From Escherichia phage vB-Eco-KMB23, in the sequence record OR525702.1: a DNA stretch of 64,000 bases. The stretch is one strand, 5' to 3'. Under the pieces are notes generated by a model. That model was not told the DNA's origin and made no database searches. It was given only the letters and a program-made list of their open reading frames with translations. Shown in pieces: positions 462-52,139 of the stretch. A program made the translations under genes and the position numbers. How positions within the stretch are numbered: position 1 is the stretch's first letter; each line of letters opens with the position of its first letter.

Positions 462-2568
462 ATGACTTTATTATCTCCGGGCATTGAGCTCAAAGAAACT
501 ACGGTTCAAAGCACCGTGGTTAATAACTCTACTGGTACAGCAGCTTTGGCCGGTAAATTCCAGTGGGGTCCTGCTTTTCAAATTAAACAGGTTACAAATG
601 AAGTAGATTTAGTTAATACTTTTGGTCAACCTACAGCTGAAACTGCTGACTATTTTATGTCTGCAATGAATTTCTTACAATACGGAAATGATTTGCGAGT
701 TGTGCGTGCTGTCGATAGAGATACCGCTAAAAACTCATCTCCGATTGCCGGTAATATTGAATACACTATTTCTACCCCAGGTAGTAACTACGCGGTTGGA
801 GATAAAATCACTGTTAAGTATGTTTCAGAAGATGTTGAAACAGAAGGTAAAATTACTGAAGTAGATGCTGATGGAAAAATTAAGAAAATTAATATTCCTA
901 CCGCAAAAATTATCGCTAAAGCGAAAGAAGTAGGCGAATATCCAGCATTAGGTTCTAACTGGACTGCGGAAATTTCTTCGTCTTCCTCTGGTTTAGCTGC
1001 AGTAATAACTCTTGGGAAAATTATTACTGATTCTGGTATTTTATTAGCTGAAATTGAAAATGCCGAAGCTGCTATGACAGCTGTTGACTTTCAGGCAAAT
1101 CTCGAAAAATATGGAATTCCAGGAGTAGTAGCTCTTTATCCAGGCGAGTTGGGCGATAAAATCGAAATTGAAATCGTATCTAAAGCTGACTACGCAAAAG
1201 GTGCTTCTGCATTACTCCCAATTTATCCAGGTGGCGGAACACGCGCATCTACTGCCAAAGCAGTGTTTGGATATGGACCACAAACTGATTCACAATACGC
1301 TATTATAGTTCGTCGCAATGATGCTATTGTTCAAAGCGTTGTTCTTTCAACAAAGCGTGGTGAAAAAGATATTTACGATAGTAACATCTATATTGATGAC
1401 TTTTTCGCAAAAGGTGGTTCAGAATATATTTTCGCAACTGCACAAAACTGGCCAGAAGGCTTCTCTGGAATTTTAACTCTGTCTGGTGGATTATCATCAA
1501 ATGCTGAAGTAACAGCAGGAGATTTGATGGAAGCTTGGGACTTCTTTGCTGACCGTGAATCTGTTGATGTTCAGTTGTTTATTGCGGGTTCTTGCGCCGG
1601 CGAATCTTTAGAAACAGCATCTACTGTCCAAAAACACGTCGTTTCAATTGGGGATGCTCGCCAAGATTGCTTAGTACTGTGCTCACCACCGCGTGAAACT
1701 GTAGTTGGAATTCCTGTAACTCGTGCTGTTGATAACTTAGTCAATTGGAGAACTGCAGAAACACGTCGTTTCAATTGGGGATGCTCGCCAAGATTGCTTA
1801 GTACTGTGCTCACCACCGCGTGAAACTGTAGTTGGAATTCCTGTAACTCGTGCTGTTGATAACTTAGTCAATTGGAGAACTGCAGCAGGTTCATACACTG
1901 ATAATAACTTTAATATCAGTTCAACCTACGCAGCAATTGATGGTAACTACAAGTATCAGTATGACAAATATAATGATGTGAATCGTTGGGTTCCATTAGC
2001 AGCTGATATTGCTGGTTTATGCGCGAGAACAGATAACGTTTCTCAGACTTGGATGTCTCCAGCTGGTTATAATCGCGGCCAAATTTTGAACGTTATTAAA
2101 CTTGCTATTGAAACTCGCCAGGCGCAGCGCGATCGTTTATACCAAGAAGCTATCAACCCAGTAACTGGCACAGGTGGTGATGGTTACGTATTGTATGGTG
2201 ATAAAACAGCTACTTCTGTTCCTTCTCCATTTGATCGTATTAACGTTCGTCGTCTGTTTAATATGTTGAAAACGAATATCGGACGTAGTTCAAAATATCG
2301 TTTGTTCGAATTAAACAACGCGTTTACTCGTTCATCGTTCCGCACAGAAACTTCCCAGTACTTGCAGGGAATTAAAGCTCTCGGTGGAATTTATGAATAT
2401 CGTGTAGTTTGCGATACAACAAATAACACTCCGTCAGTAATTGATAGAAATGAGTTTGTTGCAACATTCTACATCCAACCGGCTAGAAGCATTAACTACA
2501 TTACCTTAAACTTCGTAGCAACTGCTACTGGTGCAGATTTCGATGAGTTAACTGGTCTTGCAGGTTAA
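462..2568 (+). pseudogene. 18: tail sheath protein gene, frame broken by a 127-bp tandem duplication (track ORFs 462..1823 and 1978..2568 are its two parts)
   Basis: N-terminus MTLLSPGIELKETTVQ is gp18-like; frame 0 stops at 1821-1823 inside second repeat copy; authentic sequence continues in frame +1; 2107 nt minus 127 = 1980 nt = 659 codons + stop. Confidence 0.85.
1632..1885 (+). repeat. perfect direct tandem duplication, 2 x 127 bp (1632..1758 and 1759..1885)
   Basis: Base-by-base identity at offset 127 across the whole unit; mismatch immediately outside both ends. Confidence 0.95.
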
Positions 2569-11558: not shown

Positions 11559-12977
11559 TTATGGATAGGTATAGATGATACCAGTTTCTAAAGCAGTTTT
11601 ATGAATGATGTATCCATTACGTGATTCTTGAACATCAACTTCTGGATAGTCTTTCATCATCTTCTGAAGGGTGTAACGATGCAGGTAGTATTTACTATCT
11701 GGATCTTCAGTTTTCCAATCTTTACCTTCTTCGGTCATTTTTTGGATTTCATCCATAACCCACCAACCGCACCAGATATAAGCCGAAGTACGATGTGGAA
11801 GAGGATGAACATAAGGCAATTCACCTTCTGGTTCTGGAGCAACTTTATCAGTTACCTGAACTTGACCTTCTGCTGTGATAGTTTTGCTATCATAATCAGT
11901 AGCAGTAACAGTTGCAGTAACTTCAATAGTTTGACTTCCAATAGATGATGTATCAACAGTGTATACATTAGTTGACCCTTCTACTGGAGAAGAATCTTTC
12001 TTCCATGAATATTCGATTTGTGCTTCTTCTGGAGCATCCGTAACATTAGCAGTAAATGTAGCCGAAGCATCTTGCTGAACGTTAATAGAAGGAGGAGTCA
12101 ATGTAACCTGTGGATTCATTGTCTTCTTATTAACTGTTAATGATACTTCATTAGAAGTAACTGTTTTTGCGTCATAATCTGTTGCTGTTACTTGCGCTAC
12201 GCATTTAATTCTTTTTACTCCACTTGTAGTTGGAGTATAGCTAAATGTAGCAGAAGTCGCTTCACCAATTTGAGAATCATCTACATACCACTGATACGTA
12301 GCAGATGCCCCATCAGGTTGAGAAGCTAAGGCAGCGGTAAATTCAACGGCTGTTCCAATCACTCCAGCTGGAGGACTATCAGGAGTTACTGCCAAGGTAG
12401 TCGTCTGCGTCTTTTTATTAACAGTCAATGATACTTCATTAGAAGTAACGCTTAGTGCATCATAATCTGCCGCAGTTACTTGAGCTACACACTTGATTTT
12501 TTTAACTCCGCTTGTGTCAGGAGTGTAATTGAATGTAGCGTCAGTTGCTTCGTCTACAGGAGAACCGTCAACGTGCCATTGATACGTAGCGTTTGCACCT
12601 GATGGCTGTGAAGCTAAGGCAGCGGTAAATTGAACGGCTGTTCCGATTACTCCTTCCGGAGGACTAGCAGGAGTTACGGCTAATGTAGTTGTCTGTGTCT
12701 TATTTTGAACCGTGATAGTTGTCGTAGTTTCTGCTGTTTCAGGTTCAGATTCTGCAACTTGATTGGTTGCAACTACTTTAATAGTCTTTTGACCGGCAGG
12801 TCCTTTTAGTACATAACTAAAAGTTGCTGACGTTTCTTCCTGTGGAGCGTCGTCTACAGTCCAAGCATATGTAATAGGTCCATCTCCAGTTTGACCACTG
12901 GGTGTAGCAGTAAACTGCTGAGTCTGATCTATAACTCCAGTAGGTGTTTTAGGAGTTATATCAACTGTAAAAGCCAT
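11559..12977 (-). CDS. hoc: outer capsid decoration protein Hoc, five-domain variant
   Basis: 472 aa; termini match T4 Hoc (376 aa) from memory; contains two adjacent, roughly 80 percent identical 96-aa Ig-like domains. Confidence 0.85.
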   Translation of the reverse strand: MAFTVDITPKTPTGVIDQTQQFTATPSGQTGDGPITYAWTVDDAPQEETSATFSYVLKGPAGQKTIKVVATNQVAESEPETAETTTTITVQNKTQTTTLAVTPASPPEGVIGTAVQFTAALASQPSGANATYQWHVDGSPVDEATDATFNYTPDTSGVKKIKCVAQVTAADYDALSVTSNEVSLTVNKKTQTTTLAVTPDSPPAGVIGTAVEFTAALASQPDGASATYQWYVDDSQIGEATSATFSYTPTTSGVKRIKCVAQVTATDYDAKTVTSNEVSLTVNKKTMNPQVTLTPPSINVQQDASATFTANVTDAPEEAQIEYSWKKDSSPVEGSTNVYTVDTSSIGSQTIEVTATVTATDYDSKTITAEGQVQVTDKVAPEPEGELPYVHPLPHRTSAYIWCGWWVMDEIQKMTEEGKDWKTEDPDSKYYLHRYTLQKMMKDYPEVDVQESRNGYIIHKTALETGIIYTYP

Positions 12978-23755: not shown

Positions 23756-23759
23756 CAAC

Positions 23760-23777
23760 GGGGACCTTTCGGTCCCC
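23760..23777. terminator. bidirectional hairpin between gene 54 and the converging minus-strand ORF
   Basis: GGGGACC-tttc-GGTCCCC. Confidence 0.7.
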
Positions 23778-23783
23778 ATATTT

Positions 23784-24074: not shown

Positions 24075-24081
24075 TTTGTGT

Positions 24082-24135
24082 TCCTCATGTTATGTCAGTA
24101 AGACTACTATAACACAACACGAGGGACTTGTAAAC
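24082..24135 (-). promoter_or_regulatory. early sigma70-type promoter cassette, copy A (identical to 39407..39460)
   Basis: Minus strand reads GTTTAC, 17 nt, TTATAGT with upstream TG, then SD GAGGA and ATG of the 96-aa ORF. Confidence 0.6.
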
Positions 24136-26192
24136 TACATTTTGAACTTTTTAGACATTCCGTTGATGTTAACCAAAGAAGCTAAGATTTGAGAAACTTC
24201 GTTTTCCTCTTCTTTTGATTCTTCTACAAGGAATTGATTAAATCCAGTCATTGGACGAACTTCACCAGTTTCCATTAAATGGTCGCCATCATATACTGAT
24301 TCTTCTAATTGTTCAGAAGGAGGAACGATTGTGCCTTCGATTAAATACTTGTTATAAGCAGTTTCTTTCATCATGTACGTGCTCACTTTATTAATCTTCA
24401 GCAAAATTCCACGCGGTAAAATAACTTCAGCTTCTGATGGAAATCCTGATAAATGACCTGGAACGATAACTTTGATTCGCTCAGCCCCTTTAATTACCAT
24501 ACCTACGCTAGTTTCAGCATCTTCATTAGCATATGCGGAATGACTACCCATATGCATTAAATCTTCAGCATCAACTGAACCTTCTCCTTCACCAGAAAAT
24601 ACTGCACTGGAATCATCTAAAGCCATATAGTTTTTACCATACTCACCGAAGATATTTGGTTTAAGCGATGTTGATACGAAGTTCTTGAAATAGAACATTT
24701 TATTTTCAATATTATGGCGTAAAGTTTTAAAAGTAACTTCTTGTCCACGATAAAGCGTAGTTCCTGGAGGAAGAACTGATCCTTTGGCGAATGCAGAATC
24801 CAGCGTCTCGATGTGTTTAATAGCTCGTTCCATGTATTCTTCACGAGTAGAATCTGGTTTACCCAAGAGGAACGAGTTCATTTCAACATATGAATCTGCA
24901 CAATAATCTTCAATTACATCGGACTCAGCCTGAGTTAATCCTTTTGGGGGTACTTCAGTACTTGCATATTCATACGCTTGAGAAGCAGACTCATTAATCA
25001 ATTTATAAATGCCATTCATGACAAATTGAATAATAGCTACCTTTTCATCTGGCGTGGCTTTAGAACCTTTAACTAAATCATTGACAATTTTCTTAATAAC
25101 ATCAAAGCTATTAGAAATATTAATGTCAGCAAGATCGCTCAAAATTTTATCGGTTTTATAATCAAAGAATTCTTTATTCTTTAAATATTCCTGAGAACCT
25201 TGATATGTTATATCGCTCTGTAATTTAATAGATGGATCACGTAAACGCGCATGGGCCAATGCAATATGATTTCGGAAGCTTTCTAGTTCATAATCGTTAG
25301 ATTTAAAACGAGAAGCACTCCTCATACCACCGATAGCTCCTTTGCTGAAGTTTGAACCAATCTGAATAACGCCAGAGTTCATTGGTCCTTCTGCTTTATA
25401 TACCGGAACTTTAGATTCAAACTCTTGATATTTCTTAGCGGCGAAGCTATCACCCTGAAGTGAAGCATCAACAGTAGAATATTGAGCTTGTGCTGCTAAT
25501 CGACGACTAATTTTAGTTTTCTGAATAACAGCTTGATCCGTGCGCTTATCATTTTCTAAAGCAATAGAAGCAGCAACAGCAACAGCTTTAGGAACAGCAT
25601 TACCTGTTTTAACATCTACATAAACATCACCAACCTTTGATTCAACTTTTGTGAATAACTCAGTTGAAATAGGAGGTACACCTGGAATGTCTTCTAAATT
25701 GGCATTTTTACGGTAAACCATAATATATGCATACTTTTTATCATAATCCCAGATTTCCTTTAAAAGAACATATCGACCTGCTCCTTTAGTACGTACTAAA
25801 CGGTCAGCAATAACTTGCATTTGACGAGCAGCGCCATTTGTTTTACTTTTTAGTACGCGGAATAGGCATGCGTCAATTTTATACTGTTTCATTGTTTGAA
25901 GAGCAGTATCAAAAACCGCATTAATGACACCAATTGGATTTCCACCCAAGTTTTTAAGTTTAACTAATGATAGTTTCTCATTAACACCTATCATTACGAT
26001 ATGCATCATTTTATCGCCTGGCTTAACGTTTTTATTTGTATCACCGCCAGAGGTGTATGTACAAAATCTAAATCCAGGAAGCACGCTTTCTTCACCAGCT
26101 TGAATAGCAAAAATTTGAGGTATTTTATGCTTAGGATTTAAGTTAACAACCGGCGCCGAAGCGCCGTCAAATAATTCTGTAATAAGTTCCAT
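24135..26192 (-). CDS. Alt-family ADP-ribosyltransferase paralog
   Basis: 685 aa; N-terminus MELITELFD shared with Alt; C-terminal YRG, VSTS and EAEVILPRG motifs (R-S-E ART signature). Confidence 0.8.
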   Translation of the reverse strand: MELITELFDGASAPVVNLNPKHKIPQIFAIQAGEESVLPGFRFCTYTSGGDTNKNVKPGDKMMHIVMIGVNEKLSLVKLKNLGGNPIGVINAVFDTALQTMKQYKIDACLFRVLKSKTNGAARQMQVIADRLVRTKGAGRYVLLKEIWDYDKKYAYIMVYRKNANLEDIPGVPPISTELFTKVESKVGDVYVDVKTGNAVPKAVAVAASIALENDKRTDQAVIQKTKISRRLAAQAQYSTVDASLQGDSFAAKKYQEFESKVPVYKAEGPMNSGVIQIGSNFSKGAIGGMRSASRFKSNDYELESFRNHIALAHARLRDPSIKLQSDITYQGSQEYLKNKEFFDYKTDKILSDLADINISNSFDVIKKIVNDLVKGSKATPDEKVAIIQFVMNGIYKLINESASQAYEYASTEVPPKGLTQAESDVIEDYCADSYVEMNSFLLGKPDSTREEYMERAIKHIETLDSAFAKGSVLPPGTTLYRGQEVTFKTLRHNIENKMFYFKNFVSTSLKPNIFGEYGKNYMALDDSSAVFSGEGEGSVDAEDLMHMGSHSAYANEDAETSVGMVIKGAERIKVIVPGHLSGFPSEAEVILPRGILLKINKVSTYMMKETAYNKYLIEGTIVPPSEQLEESVYDGDHLMETGEVRPMTGFNQFLVEESKEEENEVSQILASLVNINGMSKKFKM

Positions 26193-26195
26193 GAT

Positions 26196-28289
26196 TTATC
26201 CTTGAACGAACTTGTAAGGCATGTTTGTAATATCTATGCAAGACGCAATAATTCCAAGAGATGATTCTACTTTTTGTTTAACATTTGATGAAACAAATGA
26301 TGCAAAATCAACTCTGTCTTCTATTTCAATATCACCTGTCATTGCAACTACTTCACCAGTTTCCATTAGACGATCACCGTCATAAATTACTGATTCGGTG
26401 AGTTCTTCCGTAGTCATAACTTCAGCTTGAATGAGTTTTGTATTATTAGATGTTGTTCCGTCATTATTAGAAGCATCAGTTATTTTATTAACTTTGACCA
26501 TCAATCCGCGTGGTAGAATAACTTCAGCTTCTGTTGCTATTCCGAGACTTCCTGGATATACAACATTAACTTTATGAGCTCCATCAATTGCCCATCCTAT
26601 TTGAACTTTAACGTATTCAGGATTTTCTTTATACGCTCTTATTTCGTTTGGATTAATAGTTATTCCTTCTTCATTTTTATCAACTGTCAATTCATTACGA
26701 GCTTCTGGTTCTAAAAGACCAATACCAGCATGTGTAATTCCAAAACGTCCAAAAATGATAGGAGTTAAAGAAGTAGATACAAAATTTCTGAAATAGAATA
26801 CTTTATTTTTAACTAGTGCTTCGTATATAGGAGCAGTCATACTTTGAGCACGATAAACTGTAATGCCTTCTGGTATACGGTCACCATTTTCAAAAGCTGA
26901 ATCTAAGTTATTTATAGCAGATTCAATTTCTTTTTCACTCATTACATCATATCGTTCTGGATTGTAGCGTCCTAAAAGAAGATTATTGATGTCAGTATAT
27001 CCTGAACCACAATACTCTCTAATACCACGCTTTTGTGATGGAGTATATTTAGAACCATCACGAGCAATAGTAATATCAATCATTGGACCTGCACCAATTC
27101 CAGAAAAGCTATAAATCATTCGTTTGAGGAATTTAGTTTTTGCTGCGTTCCAGGAATTTTTAGTTATTTCTTCCCAGACTTCATCTGACTGCCCTTTACG
27201 AGTTTTATTATGTTTATCAAGCCAATTATCTTTATATTCTTCAAAGAATTGATTAACAGCTGCTGCGTATTTCTCTAAACATTTTATTGAAGTAGTTGGT
27301 TCATTTTTAATCGCATTAAGAATTACATCTTTAATTTTTTCAGAAACTTCATTAACCTCACTTTTTGAAAAGAATTTATAGTCATAATGAAGTTCATCTG
27401 CAGTTCCTTCAGCAATAATTTTTGCTGCTTTAGTTTTAGAAGCCAATGAATTAATTCCAAGTTTCATTTCTTCTGCTTCGGGAATTAAAGGAGCGGTAGC
27501 AGGTTTATTGAAATTAGCTGCGGTAGATTCATACTTCTGGAATAATTCACTTTCAAATCTAGAAGATTCTAATGATTGACTTTGTGCAATTGCTCTACGG
27601 GAAATTTTAACTTTAACGATTACAGCTTGGTCAGAACGTTTATCATTTTCTTGCGCAATAGATGCAGCAATTGCCTCATTTTTAGTTACTTGAGCTCCAG
27701 TATCTTTATTGATATAAACATCACCGACCTTCGATTCAACTTTAGTAAAGAGCTCGGTACTAATTTCCGGAACTCCTGGAATGTCTTCTAGTGATACATT
27801 TTTGCGATGTATAAGAATATATGCATACTTTTTATCGTAATCCCAGAGTTCCTTAAGAAGGACGTATCTGCCACCTGAACGACTGCGGATAAGTCTATCA
27901 GCAATAAGTTGAATTTGACGAGCTTGACCAGCAGTTTTAGACTTAAGAATACGGAGCATACAGGCATCAATTTTATACTGACGCATCGTCTGCATCGCAA
28001 CAGTAAAAACTGAATTGATGTAATTAATTGGGCTTGGACCGAGACCTTTTAATTTAGCAATTGAACCTTTAGCAGTTAATGTAAAAGGAACAATATGCAT
28101 CATTTTATCGCCCATCTTTAAATCGCGATTAGTATCACCTCCAGATGTATAGGTACATAAACGAAAGCCTGGTTGTTCAATTGCGTCATCAACATGAACT
28201 GAAAAAATTTGTGGTATTTTCTTCTTTGGATTTAAGTTTGTAATCGGAAGAGTAGTATCTTCGTCAAATAATTCTGTAATGAGTTCCAT
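26196..28289 (-). CDS. alt: ADP-ribosyltransferase Alt
   Basis: About 697 aa; MELITELFDEDTTLPITNL matches T4 Alt; ART motifs present; second ATG chosen for SD spacing. Confidence 0.85.
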   Translation of the reverse strand: MELITELFDEDTTLPITNLNPKKKIPQIFSVHVDDAIEQPGFRLCTYTSGGDTNRDLKMGDKMMHIVPFTLTAKGSIAKLKGLGPSPINYINSVFTVAMQTMRQYKIDACMLRILKSKTAGQARQIQLIADRLIRSRSGGRYVLLKELWDYDKKYAYILIHRKNVSLEDIPGVPEISTELFTKVESKVGDVYINKDTGAQVTKNEAIAASIAQENDKRSDQAVIVKVKISRRAIAQSQSLESSRFESELFQKYESTAANFNKPATAPLIPEAEEMKLGINSLASKTKAAKIIAEGTADELHYDYKFFSKSEVNEVSEKIKDVILNAIKNEPTTSIKCLEKYAAAVNQFFEEYKDNWLDKHNKTRKGQSDEVWEEITKNSWNAAKTKFLKRMIYSFSGIGAGPMIDITIARDGSKYTPSQKRGIREYCGSGYTDINNLLLGRYNPERYDVMSEKEIESAINNLDSAFENGDRIPEGITVYRAQSMTAPIYEALVKNKVFYFRNFVSTSLTPIIFGRFGITHAGIGLLEPEARNELTVDKNEEGITINPNEIRAYKENPEYVKVQIGWAIDGAHKVNVVYPGSLGIATEAEVILPRGLMVKVNKITDASNNDGTTSNNTKLIQAEVMTTEELTESVIYDGDRLMETGEVVAMTGDIEIEDRVDFASFVSSNVKQKVESSLGIIASCIDITNMPYKFVQG

Positions 28290-28312
28290 CATATCCTCTC
28301 TAGTGTTTATTC

Positions 28313-32268: not shown

Positions 32269-32634
32269 TTAAATATCAAATTCGTTAAGAACTACATCAA
32301 AGATTGCTTCAAGATGCTCAGGTTTAGCTCTGTTACTCAGAATATGACGAATCCAAGTTTTAACCAAAAGCTTGCGATTAGAACCATTCCAGCAAGGATG
32401 AGTCCCTAAATCACGTTGACGAAAATCATCATCCAGAGCGATTTTGAAGTTTGAACCTTCCATTGTGATTGAAACCGTGATTCCATTTTCAAATCGCATA
32501 TAAACGTAATTAGGAGTCATATACTGCTCAATTTCGCATACTGATCCATTTTGATGTTTCCAAAGGCAAATAGTATCAATAGAACCTGCAATACAATTAG
32601 AAACATATTTACGTTCAAAATTGGTGTAGTTCAT
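32269..32634 (-). CDS. hypothetical protein
   Basis: 121 aa from ATG 32634 with RBS GGAGAATAAA; track ORF begins at upstream TTG. Confidence 0.55.
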   Translation of the reverse strand: MNYTNFERKYVSNCIAGSIDTICLWKHQNGSVCEIEQYMTPNYVYMRFENGITVSITMEGSNFKIALDDDFRQRDLGTHPCWNGSNRKLLVKTWIRHILSNRAKPEHLEAIFDVVLNEFDI

Positions 32635-32659
32635 TTTATTCTCCAAGATGTTTAATTGC

Positions 32660-32699
32660 GGTACAGGTATATAATATCATATCCTGTACCAAAGTAAAC
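32660..32699 (-). promoter_or_regulatory. early promoter with embedded stem-loop (PeSL-like cassette)
   Basis: Minus strand: GTTTAC, then 8-bp inverted repeat GGTACAGG/CCTGTACC bracketing the AT-rich -10 (TATTAT). Confidence 0.55.
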
Positions 32700-32701
32700 A
32701 A

Positions 32702-33034
32702 TTATTTTACTACTTTCCAATGCTGCATGTCAAGTTTACCAACTTTTTTCATCTTCTCAATTAAGCGTTCGGCACGTTGGCGAGCTGTAACATAATACCA
32801 TTCACCTAATTCATTTTGTTCAATTTTTCCAACGATTACTGTATTCAATTCATAAATCCAACCAGTAAAGAAATTATGAACTTGAATTGTAAAGGTGAAA
32901 TCTGTTCCCATACCTTCTGTTGTTTCTACTTCAATAATATCACCTTCAACTGCCATTAAGAACCACATAGTTTCATCATATTTACCATTGAAGCATTTAG
33001 TTTTAACTGTAGCGTTCAGATTAATCGTTTTCAT
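32702..33034 (-). CDS. hypothetical protein
   Basis: 110-aa ORF, ATG with RBS AAGGAGAATAAA. Confidence 0.6.
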   Translation of the reverse strand: MKTINLNATVKTKCFNGKYDETMWFLMAVEGDIIEVETTEGMGTDFTFTIQVHNFFTGWIYELNTVIVGKIEQNELGEWYYVTARQRAERLIEKMKKVGKLDMQHWKVVK

Positions 33035-33042
33035 TTTATTCT

Positions 33043-33100
33043 CCTTTGTTTGTGTAAGATAATACTATCACAAAGGAACCGTACTGTAAACAACTTTGTG
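33043..33100 (-). promoter_or_regulatory. early promoter with inverted repeats (PeSL-like cassette)
   Basis: GTTTAC (rc of 33086-33091) enclosed by CACAAAG/CTTTGTG repeat; AT-rich -10 downstream. Confidence 0.5.
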
Positions 33101-33120
33101 CAATCTTTGGAAAATAAAAA

Positions 33121-33140
33121 AGGACTCCCGAAGGAGTCCT
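33121..33140 (-). terminator. hairpin terminator
   Basis: AGGACTCC-cgaa-GGAGTCCT. Confidence 0.65.
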
Positions 33141-33144
33141 CAAC

Positions 33145-36093: not shown

Positions 36094-36104
36094 TTTGTTT
36101 TCCT

Positions 36105-36153
36105 CATTTGTTTTGGTAGAGCTATAATATCACAACTCTACCATAAAGTAAAC
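36105..36153 (-). promoter_or_regulatory. early promoter with embedded stem-loop (PeSL-like cassette)
   Basis: GTTTAC, then 7-bp inverted repeat GGTAGAG/CTCTACC bracketing the TG-extended -10 (TATTAT). Confidence 0.55.
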
Positions 36154-36155
36154 TG

Positions 36156-36431
36156 TTAAATTGCCTTGAATTCTGATGTCTGTGATTCAAAACGAATATC
36201 GCCTTTGATGACTAGCTCAGCATCAAGACCAAATACGACAATGATATGCGCGGAACCCGGATACAGCGTAATTGCAATAGAATCCACCTGGTCTGGAAGC
36301 AAAGTGTTCAATACATGAGTCACTTGAGCATGAATTCGAAGCTCGGCTGCGTTATCAAGCTTTTCAAACATATTATTAGCGATAATTTGACTAAACACTA
36401 CTTCTACGATTTTAGAATAAGTCGGAAACAT
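36156..36431 (-). CDS. hypothetical protein
   Basis: 91 aa from ATG 36431; track ORF begins at GTG 36437. Confidence 0.5.
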   Translation of the reverse strand: MFPTYSKIVEVVFSQIIANNMFEKLDNAAELRIHAQVTHVLNTLLPDQVDSIAITLYPGSAHIIVVFGLDAELVIKGDIRFESQTSEFKAI

Positions 36432-36634: not shown

Positions 36635-38031
<1,397 letters not shown>

Positions 38032-39399: not shown

Positions 39400-39406
39400 C
39401 ATAAAG

Positions 39407-39460
39407 TCCTCATGTTATGTCAGTAAGACTACTATAACACAACACGAGGGACTTGTAAAC
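39407..39460 (-). promoter_or_regulatory. early sigma70-type promoter cassette, copy B (identical to 24082..24135)
   Basis: 54/54 identity with copy A; drives alc. Confidence 0.6.
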
Positions 39461-41078: not shown

Positions 41079-42248
41079 TTAAAAGTATTTTTTAAAACTC
41101 ATCATAACTTTATCATCAACATCATTATCAATCTGTGCAACAAGGTAAGATGACAGTTCTACTTCTTGTGGCGCGGATTGAACATTATCAGAATTAAGAT
41201 ATTCACGAATCCAAGGATATGGATGTTTAACCGGAGCATCGGTAATTGGGCATGGAAGACCACACTGCTTCATACGAGATACAGTTAAGTAATCAATAAA
41301 GCTCCACATGCTATTTGTATTTAATCCAGGAACATCGCCATCTTTAAATAAATGAACTGCCCAATCTTTTTCTTGGCGGTTAACTTCCATGAAAATATCA
41401 ACTGCTTCTTGTTCACACTCTTGAGCAATTTTAACCCATTCATCGCCATCAGTACCGGATTGAAGCTGACGAATAATATATTGGGTGCCTTTAAGGTGAA
41501 GCTGCTCATCACGTGCAATGAACTTCATAATCTTGGCATTACCTTCCATGATTTCCATATTCTTATGGAAGTTAAAGGTACATGCGAAAGATACATAAAA
41601 ACGAATAGCTTCTAAGGCATTAATAACGTGCAAACAGAGGTAAAGAGATTTCATTAAAGCACGTTTAGTACATGCAACAACTTTGCCTAACTCTTCTTTA
41701 CGAAATCCTTCTGATAAAATTCCTTCATATTCTTCTTTAGCATTTTCCCATTCACGGGTTTTAGTCAGAACATCATCATAATAACGTCCAATTGATTCAG
41801 CACGTTTCATAATAGCTTCATCTAATACAATCTCATCAAATACCTTTGACGGATCAGTATAAAGATTTCGCATAATATGAGTATATGAACGACTATGAAT
41901 AGTTTCACTAAAAGTCCATGTAGCAACCCATGTATCAAGACTTGGGTCTGAAATTAATGACATAAGTACAGCAGATGGCGCACGACCCTGAATGCTATCC
42001 AAAAGTGATTGATACTTCAGGTTATTAGTAAAAATATTTTGCTGATACTGAGGAAGCTTATTAAATTGTGCAGCATCCATCATTAAGTTTACTTCTTCAG
42101 GACGCCAGAAAAATGATAATTGCTTTTCGGTTAAATCTTCAAAAACTTTATGGCGTTGAATATCATAACGCGCAATACCAAGACCTGAACCAAAAAACAT
42201 AGGTTCTTTTAAAACATCAACTGGATTTGTATTAAAAACTGTGCTCAT
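41079..42248 (-). CDS. nrdB: ribonucleotide reductase small subunit, uninterrupted
   Basis: 389-aa continuous ORF; no intron. Confidence 0.9.
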   Translation of the reverse strand: MSTVFNTNPVDVLKEPMFFGSGLGIARYDIQRHKVFEDLTEKQLSFFWRPEEVNLMMDAAQFNKLPQYQQNIFTNNLKYQSLLDSIQGRAPSAVLMSLISDPSLDTWVATWTFSETIHSRSYTHIMRNLYTDPSKVFDEIVLDEAIMKRAESIGRYYDDVLTKTREWENAKEEYEGILSEGFRKEELGKVVACTKRALMKSLYLCLHVINALEAIRFYVSFACTFNFHKNMEIMEGNAKIMKFIARDEQLHLKGTQYIIRQLQSGTDGDEWVKIAQECEQEAVDIFMEVNRQEKDWAVHLFKDGDVPGLNTNSMWSFIDYLTVSRMKQCGLPCPITDAPVKHPYPWIREYLNSDNVQSAPQEVELSSYLVAQIDNDVDDKVMMSFKKYF

Positions 42249-42299
42249 AAATTTTCCACTTAGTTAATAGATAGTGACTCGTCCATGAGTCAAATTATA

Positions 42300-44564
42300 T
42301 CATAATTTACAGGATGAACAATCTTCAGCTTTTGGAGTTTCTATTTCATAATCATCAGTACCAGAACCATCGCGGGTATTATGATAATAGAAATTTTTTC
42401 CGCCAAAATACCAGAAATACAAAAGGTCATCAATCATTATTGACATTGGAACCTTTCCTTTTGGAAAAATCTGCGGGTCATAGTATGTATTCGCTGAAGC
42501 TGATTGACATACCCATTTCAGCATAATAGCTACTTGCGTAAGATAAGGTTTATTACCTTTCTTAGCTAATTTCCACGTATAATCATAGAGGTCTATGTTA
42601 TGCTCAATATTGGGCACGACTTGATTAAAGGAGCCCTCTTTTGATTCTTTAACAGAGACTGGTCCACGTGGAGGCTCGATACCGTTTGTACTGTTAGAAA
42701 CTTGGGAAGATGACTCACATGGCATAAGTGCTGATAATGTGCTATTACGGATGCCAAAGAGCTTAAGGTCTTCCCGCAGCGACGACCAGTCACAAACGTA
42801 TTTTGGAGCTGCGATTTGGTCAATCTTTTTATTGTACCAGTCGATAGGTAATTCGCCTCGAGACCAACGAGTGTCTGAATAATATTCGCAAGGTCCTTTT
42901 TCTTTGGCGAGCTTAATGGATGCTTTAATGAGTCCATACTGTAATCTCTCAAATAGTTCATGTGTTAAATCGTTAGCATCTTCATAAGAAGCAAAGTTAC
43001 TTGCCAGCCAAGCTGCATAGTTAGTAACACCTACACCAAGGTTACGACGCTTTTTAGCTTTTTCTGCTTCAGGAACTGGATATCCTTGGTAATCCAAAAG
43101 ATTATCAAGAGCGCGAACTTGAACTTCTGCCAATTCATTAATTTTATCTTGGTCTTGCCAGTCAAAATTATCTAGTACGAATGCAGAGAGAGTACACAAT
43201 CCAATTTCCGCATCAGGACTATTCACATCATTTGTTGGAATAGCAATTTCACAGCACAAGTTACTTTGACGAATAGGTGCCTTTTCACGAATAAACGGAG
43301 TATAGTTATTCGTATTATCAATGAACTGCACATAAATCCTTGCTGTTCCTGAACGTTCAGTCATGAGCAATTCAAATAGTTCACGAGCTTTAATACGCTT
43401 TTTACGAATATTAGGGTCTTTTTCTGCTGCTTCGTATAATTCACGGAAACGGTCTTGGTCTTTAAAATAAGAATAATAAAGCTCGCCACCCATTTCATGC
43501 GGACTGAACAAAGTAATGTAATCGTTCTTTCCGAATCGTTCCATCATCAAATCATTCAGTTGAACACCATAATCCATATGACGAATGCGGTTTTCTTCTA
43601 CGCCTTTGTTATTTTTCAAAACGAGAAGATTTTCAACTTCCAAATGCCAAATAGGATAATAAGCAGTAGCAGCGCCGCCACGAATTCCACCCTGTGAACA
43701 TGATTTAACTGCAGTCTGAAAATGTTTCCAAAAAGGAATAACACCAGTATGGCGTACTTCACCCATGCCAATCTTAGAACCTTCAGCACGAATCATACCA
43801 ACGTTAATACCAATTCCAGCGCGTTTAGAGATATATTCAACAATTGAAGCGGAAGCCTTATTGATAGACTTCAATGAATCTCCTGCCTCAATAACAACAC
43901 ATGAACTAAACTGTCGAGTCGGAGTACGGCAACCAGCCATAATAGGAGTTGGCAGTGAAATCTGTCGGGTTGATACCGCTTCATAAAAACGGATAACATG
44001 TTTTAATCTATCAACAGGTTCATCTTGATGCAATGCCATTCCAATAGCCATAAATGCAAACTGCGGAGTTTCATAAATTTGACCAGTGGTTTTATCTTTA
44101 ACTAGATATTTTTCTTTTAATTGCATCGCCCCGGAATAAGTAAATTCCATATCCCGTTCGTGCTTAATTTTTGATTCTAAAAATGTAATTTCTTCTGCTG
44201 AATATTTTGACAATAATTCAGGGTCATATTTCCCTTCATTTACGCAATAAGAAATATGGTCAATAAATGAACGCGGTTCATACTGCCCGTAAACATGCTT
44301 ACGAAGAGCAAACATTAAACAGCGTGCAGCTACATATTGATAATCAGGCTCTTCAACCGAAATAGAATTCGCAGCAGCCTTAATGACAATAGTCTGAATA
44401 TCATCAGTTGTCATTCCATCACGGAGATAAGATTTAATATTTTCATATAATTCATAAGGATCTACTGATGTTCCTTCAGCTGCCCAAGATAAAACTTTAA
44501 TAATTTTTTGTGGGTCGAAGCTCTGAGAAACACCACTACTTTTGATAACATTAATTAATTGCAT
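42300..44564 (-). CDS. nrdA: ribonucleotide reductase large subunit
   Basis: 754 aa, ATP-cone N-terminus. Confidence 0.9.
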   Translation of the reverse strand: MQLINVIKSSGVSQSFDPQKIIKVLSWAAEGTSVDPYELYENIKSYLRDGMTTDDIQTIVIKAAANSISVEEPDYQYVAARCLMFALRKHVYGQYEPRSFIDHISYCVNEGKYDPELLSKYSAEEITFLESKIKHERDMEFTYSGAMQLKEKYLVKDKTTGQIYETPQFAFMAIGMALHQDEPVDRLKHVIRFYEAVSTRQISLPTPIMAGCRTPTRQFSSCVVIEAGDSLKSINKASASIVEYISKRAGIGINVGMIRAEGSKIGMGEVRHTGVIPFWKHFQTAVKSCSQGGIRGGAATAYYPIWHLEVENLLVLKNNKGVEENRIRHMDYGVQLNDLMMERFGKNDYITLFSPHEMGGELYYSYFKDQDRFRELYEAAEKDPNIRKKRIKARELFELLMTERSGTARIYVQFIDNTNNYTPFIREKAPIRQSNLCCEIAIPTNDVNSPDAEIGLCTLSAFVLDNFDWQDQDKINELAEVQVRALDNLLDYQGYPVPEAEKAKKRRNLGVGVTNYAAWLASNFASYEDANDLTHELFERLQYGLIKASIKLAKEKGPCEYYSDTRWSRGELPIDWYNKKIDQIAAPKYVCDWSSLREDLKLFGIRNSTLSALMPCESSSQVSNSTNGIEPPRGPVSVKESKEGSFNQVVPNIEHNIDLYDYTWKLAKKGNKPYLTQVAIMLKWVCQSASANTYYDPQIFPKGKVPMSIMIDDLLYFWYFGGKNFYYHNTRDGSGTDDYEIETPKAEDCSSCKL

Positions 44565-46000: not shown

Positions 46001-46348
46001 TCAATACGGTTTAGCATCAAATTTTCTTTCAATTTCAGGCGTGAAATATAATTCTTTACCGCGTTTGGAAAAGCGACCAATAATATGATAATTATTCTCA
46101 TCAAACGTGATATTACCAATATCCATAGCTTTCAACCAAATATCGATATTTCTATCCAGCTTTATGTCAAAATTCCAATACGGAGAACTATTACCGAAAA
46201 TACTGCAAGCGGATTCAGTAAAACAACTACTATAAATCTTATCTTTAGGAACTACTAATTGATAGACACCTTTAATAAACTGAGGACCCTGCCACTTTGG
46301 CTGTTTCGCGTCTTTTTCTAATAGAATAGGGTAATAATTAAAATTCAT
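46001..46348 (-). CDS. hypothetical protein encoded between frd and td
   Basis: 115-aa ORF with ATG start; late-promoter-like TATATAAATG about 25 bp upstream. Confidence 0.6.
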   Translation of the reverse strand: MNFNYYPILLEKDAKQPKWQGPQFIKGVYQLVVPKDKIYSSCFTESACSIFGNSSPYWNFDIKLDRNIDIWLKAMDIGNITFDENNYHIIGRFSKRGKELYFTPEIERKFDAKPY

Positions 46349-47208: not shown

Positions 47209-47541
47209 TTAAAAAGGATCAGGAACATATCCGCTAGCTTTAATCATTTTAATTAACGTTAACATTCCTTTGTTAACTGCTCGTGAGATTTCATCAAAAA
47301 CTTCATCACTAAAAAGTTCTAACACACCCTTCTGAACTTTTAATTTACAGCCAACAATTTCGTCATCGCCTATAGTAAATTCATTACCACCAATTCCTCC
47401 GAAAAACTTAATTACACCAGTTAACTGTCTTCCACGAGAATATGGGTCGTGTGATAAAGTAATATGAGTCACCCCGGGTACAGTTTTAAATTGGCAGCGA
47501 ATATTTACTTGGGAAATTCCAGTTACATGAATATCAGACAT
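47209..47541 (-). CDS. hypothetical protein
   Basis: 110-aa ORF. Confidence 0.55.
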   Translation of the reverse strand: MSDIHVTGISQVNIRCQFKTVPGVTHITLSHDPYSRGRQLTGVIKFFGGIGGNEFTIGDDEIVGCKLKVQKGVLELFSDEVFDEISRAVNKGMLTLIKMIKASGYVPDPF

Positions 47542-47551
47542 AATATTTTCC

Positions 47552-47794
47552 TCAAACAGACTTTTTCACAATTTTCCAATCAGCTTTAAACTGTTCAACG
47601 TCAGAATGGTAAATCCAGAATCCTGCGCTTTCTCCATCCTCATAAAGAGGGCATCCATCACATTCATCTTCCCATCCCATATCACGCAAAAGACGTTCAG
47701 CTTTTTCAACAAGTTCAGAATCTTTACCAATAATATTAAAATACCATTTACCTCTAACTTCTGAATCTTTGATACTCTGACGTTGTAATCTCAT
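47552..47794 (-). CDS. hypothetical protein
   Basis: 80 aa from ATG 47794 with RBS AAGGAGAATAAA; track ORF begins at TTG 47851. Confidence 0.55.
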   Translation of the reverse strand: MRLQRQSIKDSEVRGKWYFNIIGKDSELVEKAERLLRDMGWEDECDGCPLYEDGESAGFWIYHSDVEQFKADWKIVKKSV

Positions 47795-47814
47795 TTTATT
47801 CTCCTTAGTTGATA

Positions 47815-47849
47815 AGGCTATAGTATCACTACCATAGCCTGTTGTAAAC
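47815..47849 (-). promoter_or_regulatory. early promoter with embedded stem-loop (PeSL-like cassette)
   Basis: GTTTAC, then 7-bp inverted repeat AGGCTAT/ATAGCCT bracketing the -10 (TACTAT). Confidence 0.55.
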
Positions 47850-47851
47850 AA

Positions 47852-48112
47852 TTATTTTTGAATTTTATCGAGCCACTTACCAAGCTTAATCATTTCTTTA
47901 GTAGCCTTTTCCATACTTCTGAACTTAACCAATAGAGGATAGGTATCGACACCCATAACTAAACTGGTTACAAGACTGTGTTCACCCACAAGCCATAACG
48001 AATACGTTTGAATATCGAGCCCGTAATTTCTGTCTTTGTGGACCCGTACACCCATCACTTCAAATTTCTCACTAGCTTTTTCTACCGCATTCAGGAAATC
48101 ATCTTTAGTCAT
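47852..48112 (-). CDS. hypothetical protein
   Basis: About 86 aa from ATG 48112; track ORF begins at TTG 48145. Confidence 0.45.
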   Translation of the reverse strand: MTKDDFLNAVEKASEKFEVMGVRVHKDRNYGLDIQTYSLWLVGEHSLVTSLVMGVDTYPLLVKFRSMEKATKEMIKLGKWLDKIQK

Positions 48113-48766: not shown

Positions 48767-48810
48767 ATTGTTTTCCTCTTTAATCATCAGCAGTATTGCC
48801 GATAGTTGTA

Positions 48811-48839
48811 TAGTACCATGGAAGAACAAGGATGTAAAC
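48811..48839 (-). promoter_or_regulatory. early sigma70-type promoter
   Basis: GTTTAC, 17 nt, TG-extended -10 TACTAT on minus strand. Confidence 0.5.
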
Positions 48840-52080: not shown

Positions 52081-52101
52081 ATGAACCTCGTTCAATTAGT
52101 G

Positions 52102-52139
52102 AGATTTCTATTATATACCATCCAAATCTTAAAGTAAAC
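52102..52139 (-). promoter_or_regulatory. early promoter with inverted repeat (PeSL-like cassette)
   Basis: GTTTAC, then 6-bp inverted repeat AGATTT/AAATCT bracketing TATATAAT. Confidence 0.5.

Follow-up and report, generated by a model that had tools for sequence, protein, structure and literature searches.

Many early promoters of this T4-like phage contain a hairpin that spans the -10 region, folds best as sense RNA and has its 5′ arm in the promoter spacer. From the pairing pattern we consider it probable that this hairpin marks and insulates read-through RNA at the boundaries of small genes. The analysis is based on a window of 64,000 nucleotides, i.e. the whole stretch from Escherichia phage vB-Eco-KMB23 (sequence record OR525702.1). 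Its source phage is a Tequatrovirus (T4-like) with about 96% identity to T4, and a 3-kb query around the promoters in focus matched more than 500 Tequatrovirus genomes with identities of 95–99%.

With gene names transferred from wV7 and T4, the minus-strand order in the interval under study reads 30.9, a terminator, a promoter, gene 30.8 (33034..32702), a second promoter and gene 30.7 (32634..32269). Gene 30.8 (32702..33034, minus strand) encodes 110 aa, has a cassette on each side and is missing in phage T2. The intrinsic terminator downstream of 30.9 (33120..33141, minus strand) consists of GAGGACTCC-TTCG-GGAGTCCTT followed by TTTTTATTTT; the terminator scan assigns it 9 pairs (5 of them G-C) and a T-run, and it is annotated as terminator in both wV7 and fPS-90. 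It represents the sole canonical upstream stem-loop of the promoter-early stem-loop (PeSL) type within this interval. On the minus strand the terminator scan detected only this element, located upstream of P30.8, and one other at 23758..23779.

The sequence-only reading had listed five minus-strand GTTTAC promoters with inverted repeats, and all of them are present where it had placed them, serving 30.7, 30.8, cd.2, frd.1 and rnh. These are ordinary strong sigma-70-type T4 early promoters composed of an AT-rich upstream region, the GTTTAC -35, TGn, the -10, a Shine–Dalgarno sequence (SD) and ATG: GTTTAC-N17/18-TAnnnT together with TGn and an AT-rich upstream flank occurs at 5/5 listed sites, and on their 3′ side the cassettes end with the downstream gene's SD and ATG. 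Scanning the window for GTTTAC-N16-18-TAnnnT revealed ten sites (10/10 on the minus strand, as are all elements described in this and the next paragraph). The P30.7 cassette (32635..32701) has its GTTTAC at 32699..32694 and the -10 TATTAT at 32676..32671; its arms are GGTACAGG (32690..32683) and CCTGTACC (32667..32660), and its SD, which is at the same time a RegB motif, is GGAGAATAAAA (32644..32634). In the P30.8 cassette (33035..33100) the GTTTAC (33091..33086) and the -10 TAGTAT (33067..33062) are accompanied by the arm TCCTTTGT in the spacer (33077..33070) and the 3′ arm ACAAAGGA (33049..33042); the latter partly covers the SD GGAG (33044..33041). The P-cd.2 cassette (36094..36160) corresponds to Pe133295, named in a note of the T4 record, and comprises GTTTAC (36153..36148), the -10 TATTAT (36129..36124) and the arms TGGTAGAG (36143..36136) and CTCTACCA (36121..36114). 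For the P-frd.1 cassette (47795..47862) these elements are GTTTAC (47849..47844), the -10 TACTAT (47825..47820), the arms AGGCTAT (47840..47834) and ATAGCCT (47821..47815) and an SD/RegB motif at 47804..47794. Finally, P-rnh (52083..52139) has GTTTAC at 52139..52134, the -10 TATAAT at 52115..52110 and a 6-bp repeat classed as AT-only (AGATTT/AAATCT).

Two cassettes with stronger hairpins had been absent from the earlier list, namely those of alc and alt.-3. In the P-alc cassette (39403..39460) spacer and SD pair with each other (AAGUCC.CUCGUG... with ...CAUGAGGACUU), and this cassette recurs almost unchanged over 57 nt in that of P-alt.-3 (24075..24138), whose segment 24082..24138 matches T4 136283..136339 at 98%. 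T4 possesses orthologues of the window sites at 129918, 130310, 133331 (Pe133295), 146143, 150763, 136336 and 123093 with equal hexamers and spacing, and at 129918, 130310, 133331, 150763, 136336 and 123093 the sequences are unchanged. The fPS-90 orthologues, that of P30.8 among them, are annotated as predicted early promoters.

For each promoter of the window the sense RNA from the -35 end to the ATG was folded and compared with dinucleotide shuffles. The resulting energies are -16.1 kcal/mol for P30.7 (z -4.1), -12.1 kcal/mol for P30.8 (z -2.9), -17.2 kcal/mol for P-cd.2 (z -6.3) and -15.6 kcal/mol for P-frd.1 (z -4.0), and they reach -23.9 kcal/mol for P-alc at 39460 (z -5.9) and -23.0 kcal/mol for P-alt.-3 at 24135 (z -5.3). 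The all-AT 6-mer of P-rnh (52139) yields only -3.4 kcal/mol and is no better than its shuffles (z +1.0), and in the same folds (-35 to ATG, sense RNA) a hairpin is absent from the promoters at 48839 and 62783. This means that the repeats said to bracket the -10 region hold for four of the five listed promoters (z -2.9 to -6.3) and fall away for rnh.

Whether such structures exceed the background of AT-rich DNA was evaluated for the whole T4 genome with its 36 gene-proximal GTTTAC early promoters. As controls, half-swap chimeras were produced by exchanging 5′ halves with 3′ halves among promoters, which keeps the consensus and the position-specific composition and breaks a promoter's own pairing. 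Of the T4 promoters, 14/36 have an inverted repeat over the -10 that is perfect for 7 bp or more, as compared with 4% of the chimeras, 6% of random TANNNT sites and 15% of intergenic non-promoter TANNNT sites. Since stem length is inflated in AT-rich DNA, folding energies and the half-swap chimeras were used instead. The mean fold of the 36 promoters amounts to -12.3 kcal/mol versus -6.9 kcal/mol in the chimeras (p<5e-5, with 0 of 20,000 permutations reaching the native value) and -6.3 kcal/mol both for late promoters and for TAnnnT sites in intergenic DNA outside promoters. At least six pairs over the -10 are formed in 27/36 early promoters; the other nine are without such a hairpin. Hence, scored over the genome, GTTTAC promoters carry repeats more commonly and fold more strongly than the controls, and the equal repeat frequency in AT-rich intergenic DNA, which the sequence-only reading had named as counter-evidence, is not what was observed. 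An origin of the repeats by chance in AT-rich intergenic DNA, or through self-complementarity of the consensus, is largely refuted and hardly credible any more. This explanation covers the rnh site and the commonness of short perfect repeats (k>=6 is reached at 28% of TANNNT sites in intergenic DNA and at 47% of TATAAATA late promoters), but the native folds surpass all controls (-6.3 to -6.9 kcal/mol), the chimeras lose the structure while keeping consensus and composition, and there are compensatory variants as well as pairing conserved across genera (see below).

The structure is furthermore strand-specific. Sense is more stable than antisense at 6/6 structured sites of the window, and in T4 the sense-minus-antisense asymmetry is -3.23 kcal/mol versus -1.20 ± 0.32 kcal/mol in chimeras (p<5e-5), with G·U pairs contributing 63/449 pairs in sense folds versus 24/394 in antisense folds. 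Such an asymmetry fits RNA or a single sense DNA strand and is not what a symmetric duplex element predicts; since single-stranded DNA tolerates G·T pairs too, the hairpin may conceivably act in the non-template DNA strand as well. An element acting at the level of duplex DNA would be either an operator bound by a dimeric protein or a cruciform tuning the promoter, for example in early shut-off. This reading could draw on the dyad being centred at the -10 and on statements in the literature that the mechanism of T4 early-promoter shut-off is unknown (PMC2988021, PMC3014915). We regard it as very unlikely: the arms differ at every promoter, so that there is no common operator, the G·U pairs would turn into A·C mismatches in the complementary strand (sense folds being about 3 kcal/mol better), and stem positions vary, as do the loops, which range from 4 to approximately 30 nt. 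The operator was rejected on differing arms together with strand asymmetry, and the earlier argument against a single operator, drawn from the unlike arms, proved sound.

The position of the arms points to the kind of RNA that could fold. All 5′ arms begin in the spacer, 11–18 nt before the -10, and the tops of the stems are partly supplied by the promoter consensus (TGTGATA.../...TATAG). A sigma-70 promoter starts transcription approximately 6–8 nt past the -10. The transcription starts of the cassettes are derived from this geometry, and the amount of read-through is presumed. With the 5′ arm in the untranscribed spacer, locally started RNA would be devoid of the hairpin and only read-through RNA could fold. 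No U-tail, scored as five or more T within the following 8 nt, is attached to the hairpins, either in the window (0/7) or in T4 (0/27); their tails are A-rich with a mean of 4.4 A per 8 nt, and the terminator scan of the window picked up no -10-spanning hairpin. Because a U-tract is absent the hairpins do not appear to be intrinsic terminators, and this candidate function was rejected.

Roughly one cassette in four uses the SD itself as its 3′ arm. Within the window this applies to 30.8, alc and alt.-3: in the latter two the spacer pairs with GAGGAC, and in 30.8 ACAAAGGA overlaps GGAG, the spacer:SD duplex of P30.8 having a value of -10.9 in T4. T4 spacers pair with their own SD at -6.00 kcal/mol versus -4.64 ± 0.30 kcal/mol with the SDs of other genes (p<5e-5), and clear cases comprise about nine of the 35 T4 promoters scored, including regB, denV and nrdC.8. 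The occlusion is maintained in Dhakavirus by different arms, namely UCUCCUCAU/AUGAGGAGA in the alc orthologue (-16.9, z -4.4) and UCUCCGGU/ACUGGAGA in the 30.8 orthologue (-11.6, z -2.55). In the Dhakavirus 30.7 orthologues the arms are unchanged and the loop and leader divergent. Moreover, the promoter of one and the same gene, frd.1, exists in two compensatory forms, AGGCTAT/ATAGCCT and AGGGTA/TACCCT, the second being found in T2, sb4, T4 and Sf25. An IMG/VR search with gp30.8 gave only 9 loci, which are too few and too alike for a formal count of covariation, and GenBank relatives were used in their place.

An initiation context common to three downstream genes had been noticed before, and the 13-mer GGAGAATAAAATG indeed occurs exactly three times, at 32632..32644, 33032..33044 and 47792..47804, always on the minus strand; with at most one mismatch there are 4 matches versus 0.21 expected by chance. 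All three exact copies are ribosome-binding sites (RBSs) of cassette-driven genes. The published target consensus of RegB/S1 is GGAGRAYARAA, and GGAG with AAUAAAA is termed canonical (Durand et al. 2006, PMC1702504; PMC3014915). The motif GGAGAATAAAA, as SD of early genes, fits this consensus at 11/11 positions, and it has three occurrences in the window and eight in T4, each of them on the strand of the early genes. Owing to this match at all positions the shared context is best read as a site of RegB inactivation; judged by its letters, GGAGAATAAAA-TG is a canonical RegB/S1 cleavage site, and this reading is more specific than that of a merely shared RBS given earlier. Structured GGAG sites are reported to resist RegB (PMC1702504), which fits a difference between read-through and locally initiated RNA.

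According to the explanation that we favour, the host sigma-70 RNA polymerase would read each cassette right after infection, the order of elements being an AT-rich UP region, the GTTTAC -35, a TGn-extended -10, a short A-rich leader, the SD and the ATG. The untranscribed spacer between -35 and -10 is complementary to the start region, to the sequence just past the start or to the SD, so RNA from the cassette's own promoter would stay unfolded and RNA entering from the upstream gene would fold. For 30.8, alc and alt.-3 the SD would be buried on long transcripts, leaving the gene untranslated and its GGAG spared by RegB, an enzyme whose cleavage at GGAGAATAAAA would inactivate T4 early mRNAs. 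For 30.7, cd.2 and frd.1 a stable stem-loop would arise where two cistrons meet. Having no U-tail, it would most likely cause pausing or attenuation, or shield the RNA from 3′-exonucleases, rather than act as an intrinsic terminator; this role, as for every hairpin that leaves the SD free, is conjectural. P30.8 lies behind a strong intrinsic terminator, so that scant read-through RNA would be available for its hairpin. Literature searches for genome-wide T4 transcript-end maps found none. As a by-product of this architecture, the -35, the TGn-10 and the RBS constitute short dispersed direct repeats at which gene-sized indels sometimes occur.

A more tentative generalization, which we hold for possible rather than probable, is that T4-type early promoters carry a built-in discriminator of transcript origin as a genome-wide rule, with the spacer being selected at the RNA level. 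If so, RNA entering from upstream would be folded shut and hence silent in translation, resistant to RegB and/or stabilised at the 3′ end, and local RNA would be open. This could contribute to the rapid early shut-off once read-through and middle-mode RNAs take over. Taken together, selection on sense RNA and folding restricted to read-through transcripts would offer a testable model of how dozens of very small early genes are kept apart by insulation and shut down once the early period is over.

Gene-content breakpoints were analysed by aligning the window from 23.5 to 49 kb with T4, T2, sb4, ESh36, fPS-90, Sf25 and IME281. T2 is without the segment 32644..33030 of the window, i.e. gene 30.8 plus the 30.7 promoter, and has the P30.8 cassette joined to 30.7; this junction is located inside a 15-nt direct repeat, GGAGAATAAAATGAA, the shared RBS. 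In the four relatives fPS-90, sb4, Sf25 and IME281 an additional gene, encoding about 175 aa, separates the SD of the cd.2 cassette from the ATG of cd.2 and is inserted exactly at that point. A window-specific ORF of 86 aa (47852..48112) adjoins the UP region of P-frd.1, and in T4 and ESh36 1.7 kb are missing, beginning 19 bp upstream of the -35 of P-alt.-3 (breakpoint 24154). In Dhakavirus-like loci a 42-nt leader is identical between P30.8 and P30.7, which suggests conversion between cassettes. All these cases would be expected if the cassettes were classical PeSLs, in which the stem-loop ends or attenuates upstream transcription and the whole unit is a mobile module, with homologous recombination between cassettes excising, inserting or exchanging the flanked ORFs, mini-circles being one of the routes. 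The layout fits the definition of PeSLs as well, and a stem-loop of RB49 terminated transcription in a lacZ assay (PMC2839356). Nevertheless we find it rather doubtful that this describes the cassettes of the window. Their -10-spanning hairpins are without a U-tract, and the cassette-specific arms lower homology rather than provide any, the crossovers lying in conserved promoter and RBS motifs (RBS, SD or UP region). Many, and indeed most, of the remaining indels trace back to homing endonucleases or introns, or to microhomology at junctions that have no cassette, and recombination alone explains neither the G·U bias of the sense strand nor the conserved occlusion of the SD. Breakpoints coincide with 5/7 cassette junctions versus 13/38 other gene junctions, a difference that is not significant (one-sided p=0.08). 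The proposed link between cassettes and breaks in gene content is thus visible at individual junctions and does not extend to the junction-level comparison, and the evidence for shuffling at cassettes is real but anecdotal. A role of the cassettes in recombination in this region rests on promoter and RBS motifs rather than on stem-loops and is statistically no stronger than that of other junctions.

Compared with known systems, the window sites are not essentially different from T4 early promoters of the Pe class (UP / -35 GTTTAC / TGn / -10). The cassettes belong to an already known class, T4 early promoters that are PeSL-like, so the elements as such have little novelty. The reviews of T4 early transcription that were consulted speak of “additional regions of consensus” in early promoters and leave a complementarity between spacer and leader unmentioned. 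The definition of PeSLs allows the stem-loop five positions, one of them overlapping the -10 (Arbiol et al. 2010, PMC2839356), and its authors regarded T-even early promoters of the IP locus with AT-rich stem-loops (Repoila et al. 1994, cited there) as PeSL-like. PeSLs and the cassettes of the window share an AT-rich region, a sigma-70 early promoter with its -35 and -10 at 16–18 nt, a stem-loop overlapping the -10, an SD and an ATG; both are located between small non-essential ORFs, and some indels of close relatives end there. A stem-loop in a permitted position is present at four of the five listed sites and at two more, and is lacking at rnh. In contrast, PeSL stems are described as polyG/polyC, whereas those of the window are AT/GU-rich, without U-tail and not terminator-like, and the terminator or attenuator feature is absent by the sequence proxy (0/7 in the window, 0/27 in T4). 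The arms are also not the shared homology here, and the enrichment of breakpoints is not significant in this sample. In the PST/T4 pair PeSLs are drawn with the stem-loops upstream of the promoter and called terminators (Comeau et al. 2014, PMC4122927); of this arrangement (TTTACW-N17-TAYWAT with upstream stem-loop) only P30.8 has an example (33120..33141). The suggested resemblance to PeSLs can therefore be accepted for layout and for single gene-content cases but not for the terminator feature, the upstream stem-loop and the significance of breakpoints.

Rho-independent terminators and REP-like 3′ stabiliser hairpins are likewise stable stem-loops at cistron boundaries. The former have a U-tract and the cassette hairpins have none, and a stabiliser role of the latter kind is only presumed for them. 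As regards RegB/S1 targets, GGAGAATAAAA equals the published canonical site, and cleavage at the three sites of the window is predicted from this identity; the GGAG of 30.8 would be paired when it lies on read-through RNA. A parallel comes from the hairpins of T4 that sequester the RBS of e, soc, 49 and I-TevI and enclose a promoter (PMC3014915). There, the SD is paired on the long upstream RNA, and the short RNA from the internal promoter is devoid of the 5′ arm and translatable. Pairing of the SD with sequence upstream of the presumed internal start is equally found at P30.8, P-alc and P-alt.-3. Unlike in e, soc, 49 and I-TevI, the SD is occluded in only about a quarter of the cassettes, and the internal promoter is of the sigma-70 early type instead of late (TATAAATA, gp55). 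The logic of e, soc, 49 and I-TevI favours late RNA, whereas the cassettes described here would favour early, locally initiated RNA.

One early-promoter cassette of 57 nt is present in the window in two copies of about 98% identity, located on the minus strand at 24082..24138 and 39407..39460, which are separated by 15 kb and drive alt.-3 and alc (the counterpart pair in T4 lies at 123040..123093 and 136283..136339). These copies constitute a dispersed direct repeat of a length sufficient for homologous recombination. Adjacent cassettes are found in the Dhakavirus-like loci from IMG/VR (L009-L013), where promoters at 1427..1503 and 1833..1912 stand on either side of gene 30.8. Both contain the identical 42-nt segment, which starts with the 3' hairpin arm and extends as far as the ATG; this identity suggests conversion between the neighbours, with the switch point in the -10/loop.

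The T4 RefSeq record carries a misc_feature at T4 133300..133313 (window 36122..36135) with the wording [quoted passage not shown]. This feature coincides exactly with the loop of 14 nt, TTGTGATATTATAG, that separates the hairpin arms GGTAGAG and CTCTACC of the cd.2 promoter. In the earlier T4 sequence the loop therefore stood in the opposite orientation relative to the inverted repeats flanking it, a difference that could reflect either a sequencing error or a genuine variant arising by inversion. In the cd.2 promoter of T2 (PV958097, about 12530..12560) the -10 element has a 2-nt deletion, TATTAG replacing TATTATAG, and the hairpin loop is shorter with both arms retained. The frd.1-type cassette leads directly into frd.1 in T2, sb4 and the window; in T4 (146005..146142) and Sf25 the next element after it is a mini-ORF (MFAPY...), which lacks an annotation and has a separate SD.

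Promoters of other architecture occur as well. A sub-family of early promoters without a hairpin spanning the -10 is represented at window 48788..48839 and at T4 167086, 163673, 70696, 55384 and 27080. Its members have in common the highly conserved leader TACTATACAACTATCAACTACTGATAC..., which forms a small 5'-proximal hairpin (UAUCA-N5-UGAUA) inside the promoter's own transcript. Additionally, a promoter-like GTTTAC-N18-TACAAT site with the 6-bp repeat CTGGAG/CTCCAG is located on the minus strand at window 52667, antisense within the tail-fibre gene 34, and is conserved at T4 151291.

Four small minus-strand ORFs of the window, of 86 aa (47852..48112), 110 aa (47209..47541), 115 aa (46001..46348) and 100 aa (37729..38031), are absent or replaced in T4 and several of the compared relatives, and their deletion junctions show overlaps of 3-16 nt at gene boundaries. 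Most large indels relative to T4 are explained by differences in homing elements (window 8589/8650, 13704/13724, 41581, 42248..42304, 45403 and 49882/49918): the phage lacks T4's segD, segE, segG, nrdB.1 with mobE, the nrdB intron and the td intron (I-TevIII, I-TevI). Finally, the window contains two full-length alt-like ADP-ribosyltransferase genes in tandem on the minus strand (24135..26192, 685 aa, and 26196..28292, 698 aa); the alt content of T4 is a single alt together with the fragments alt.-1 and alt.-2.
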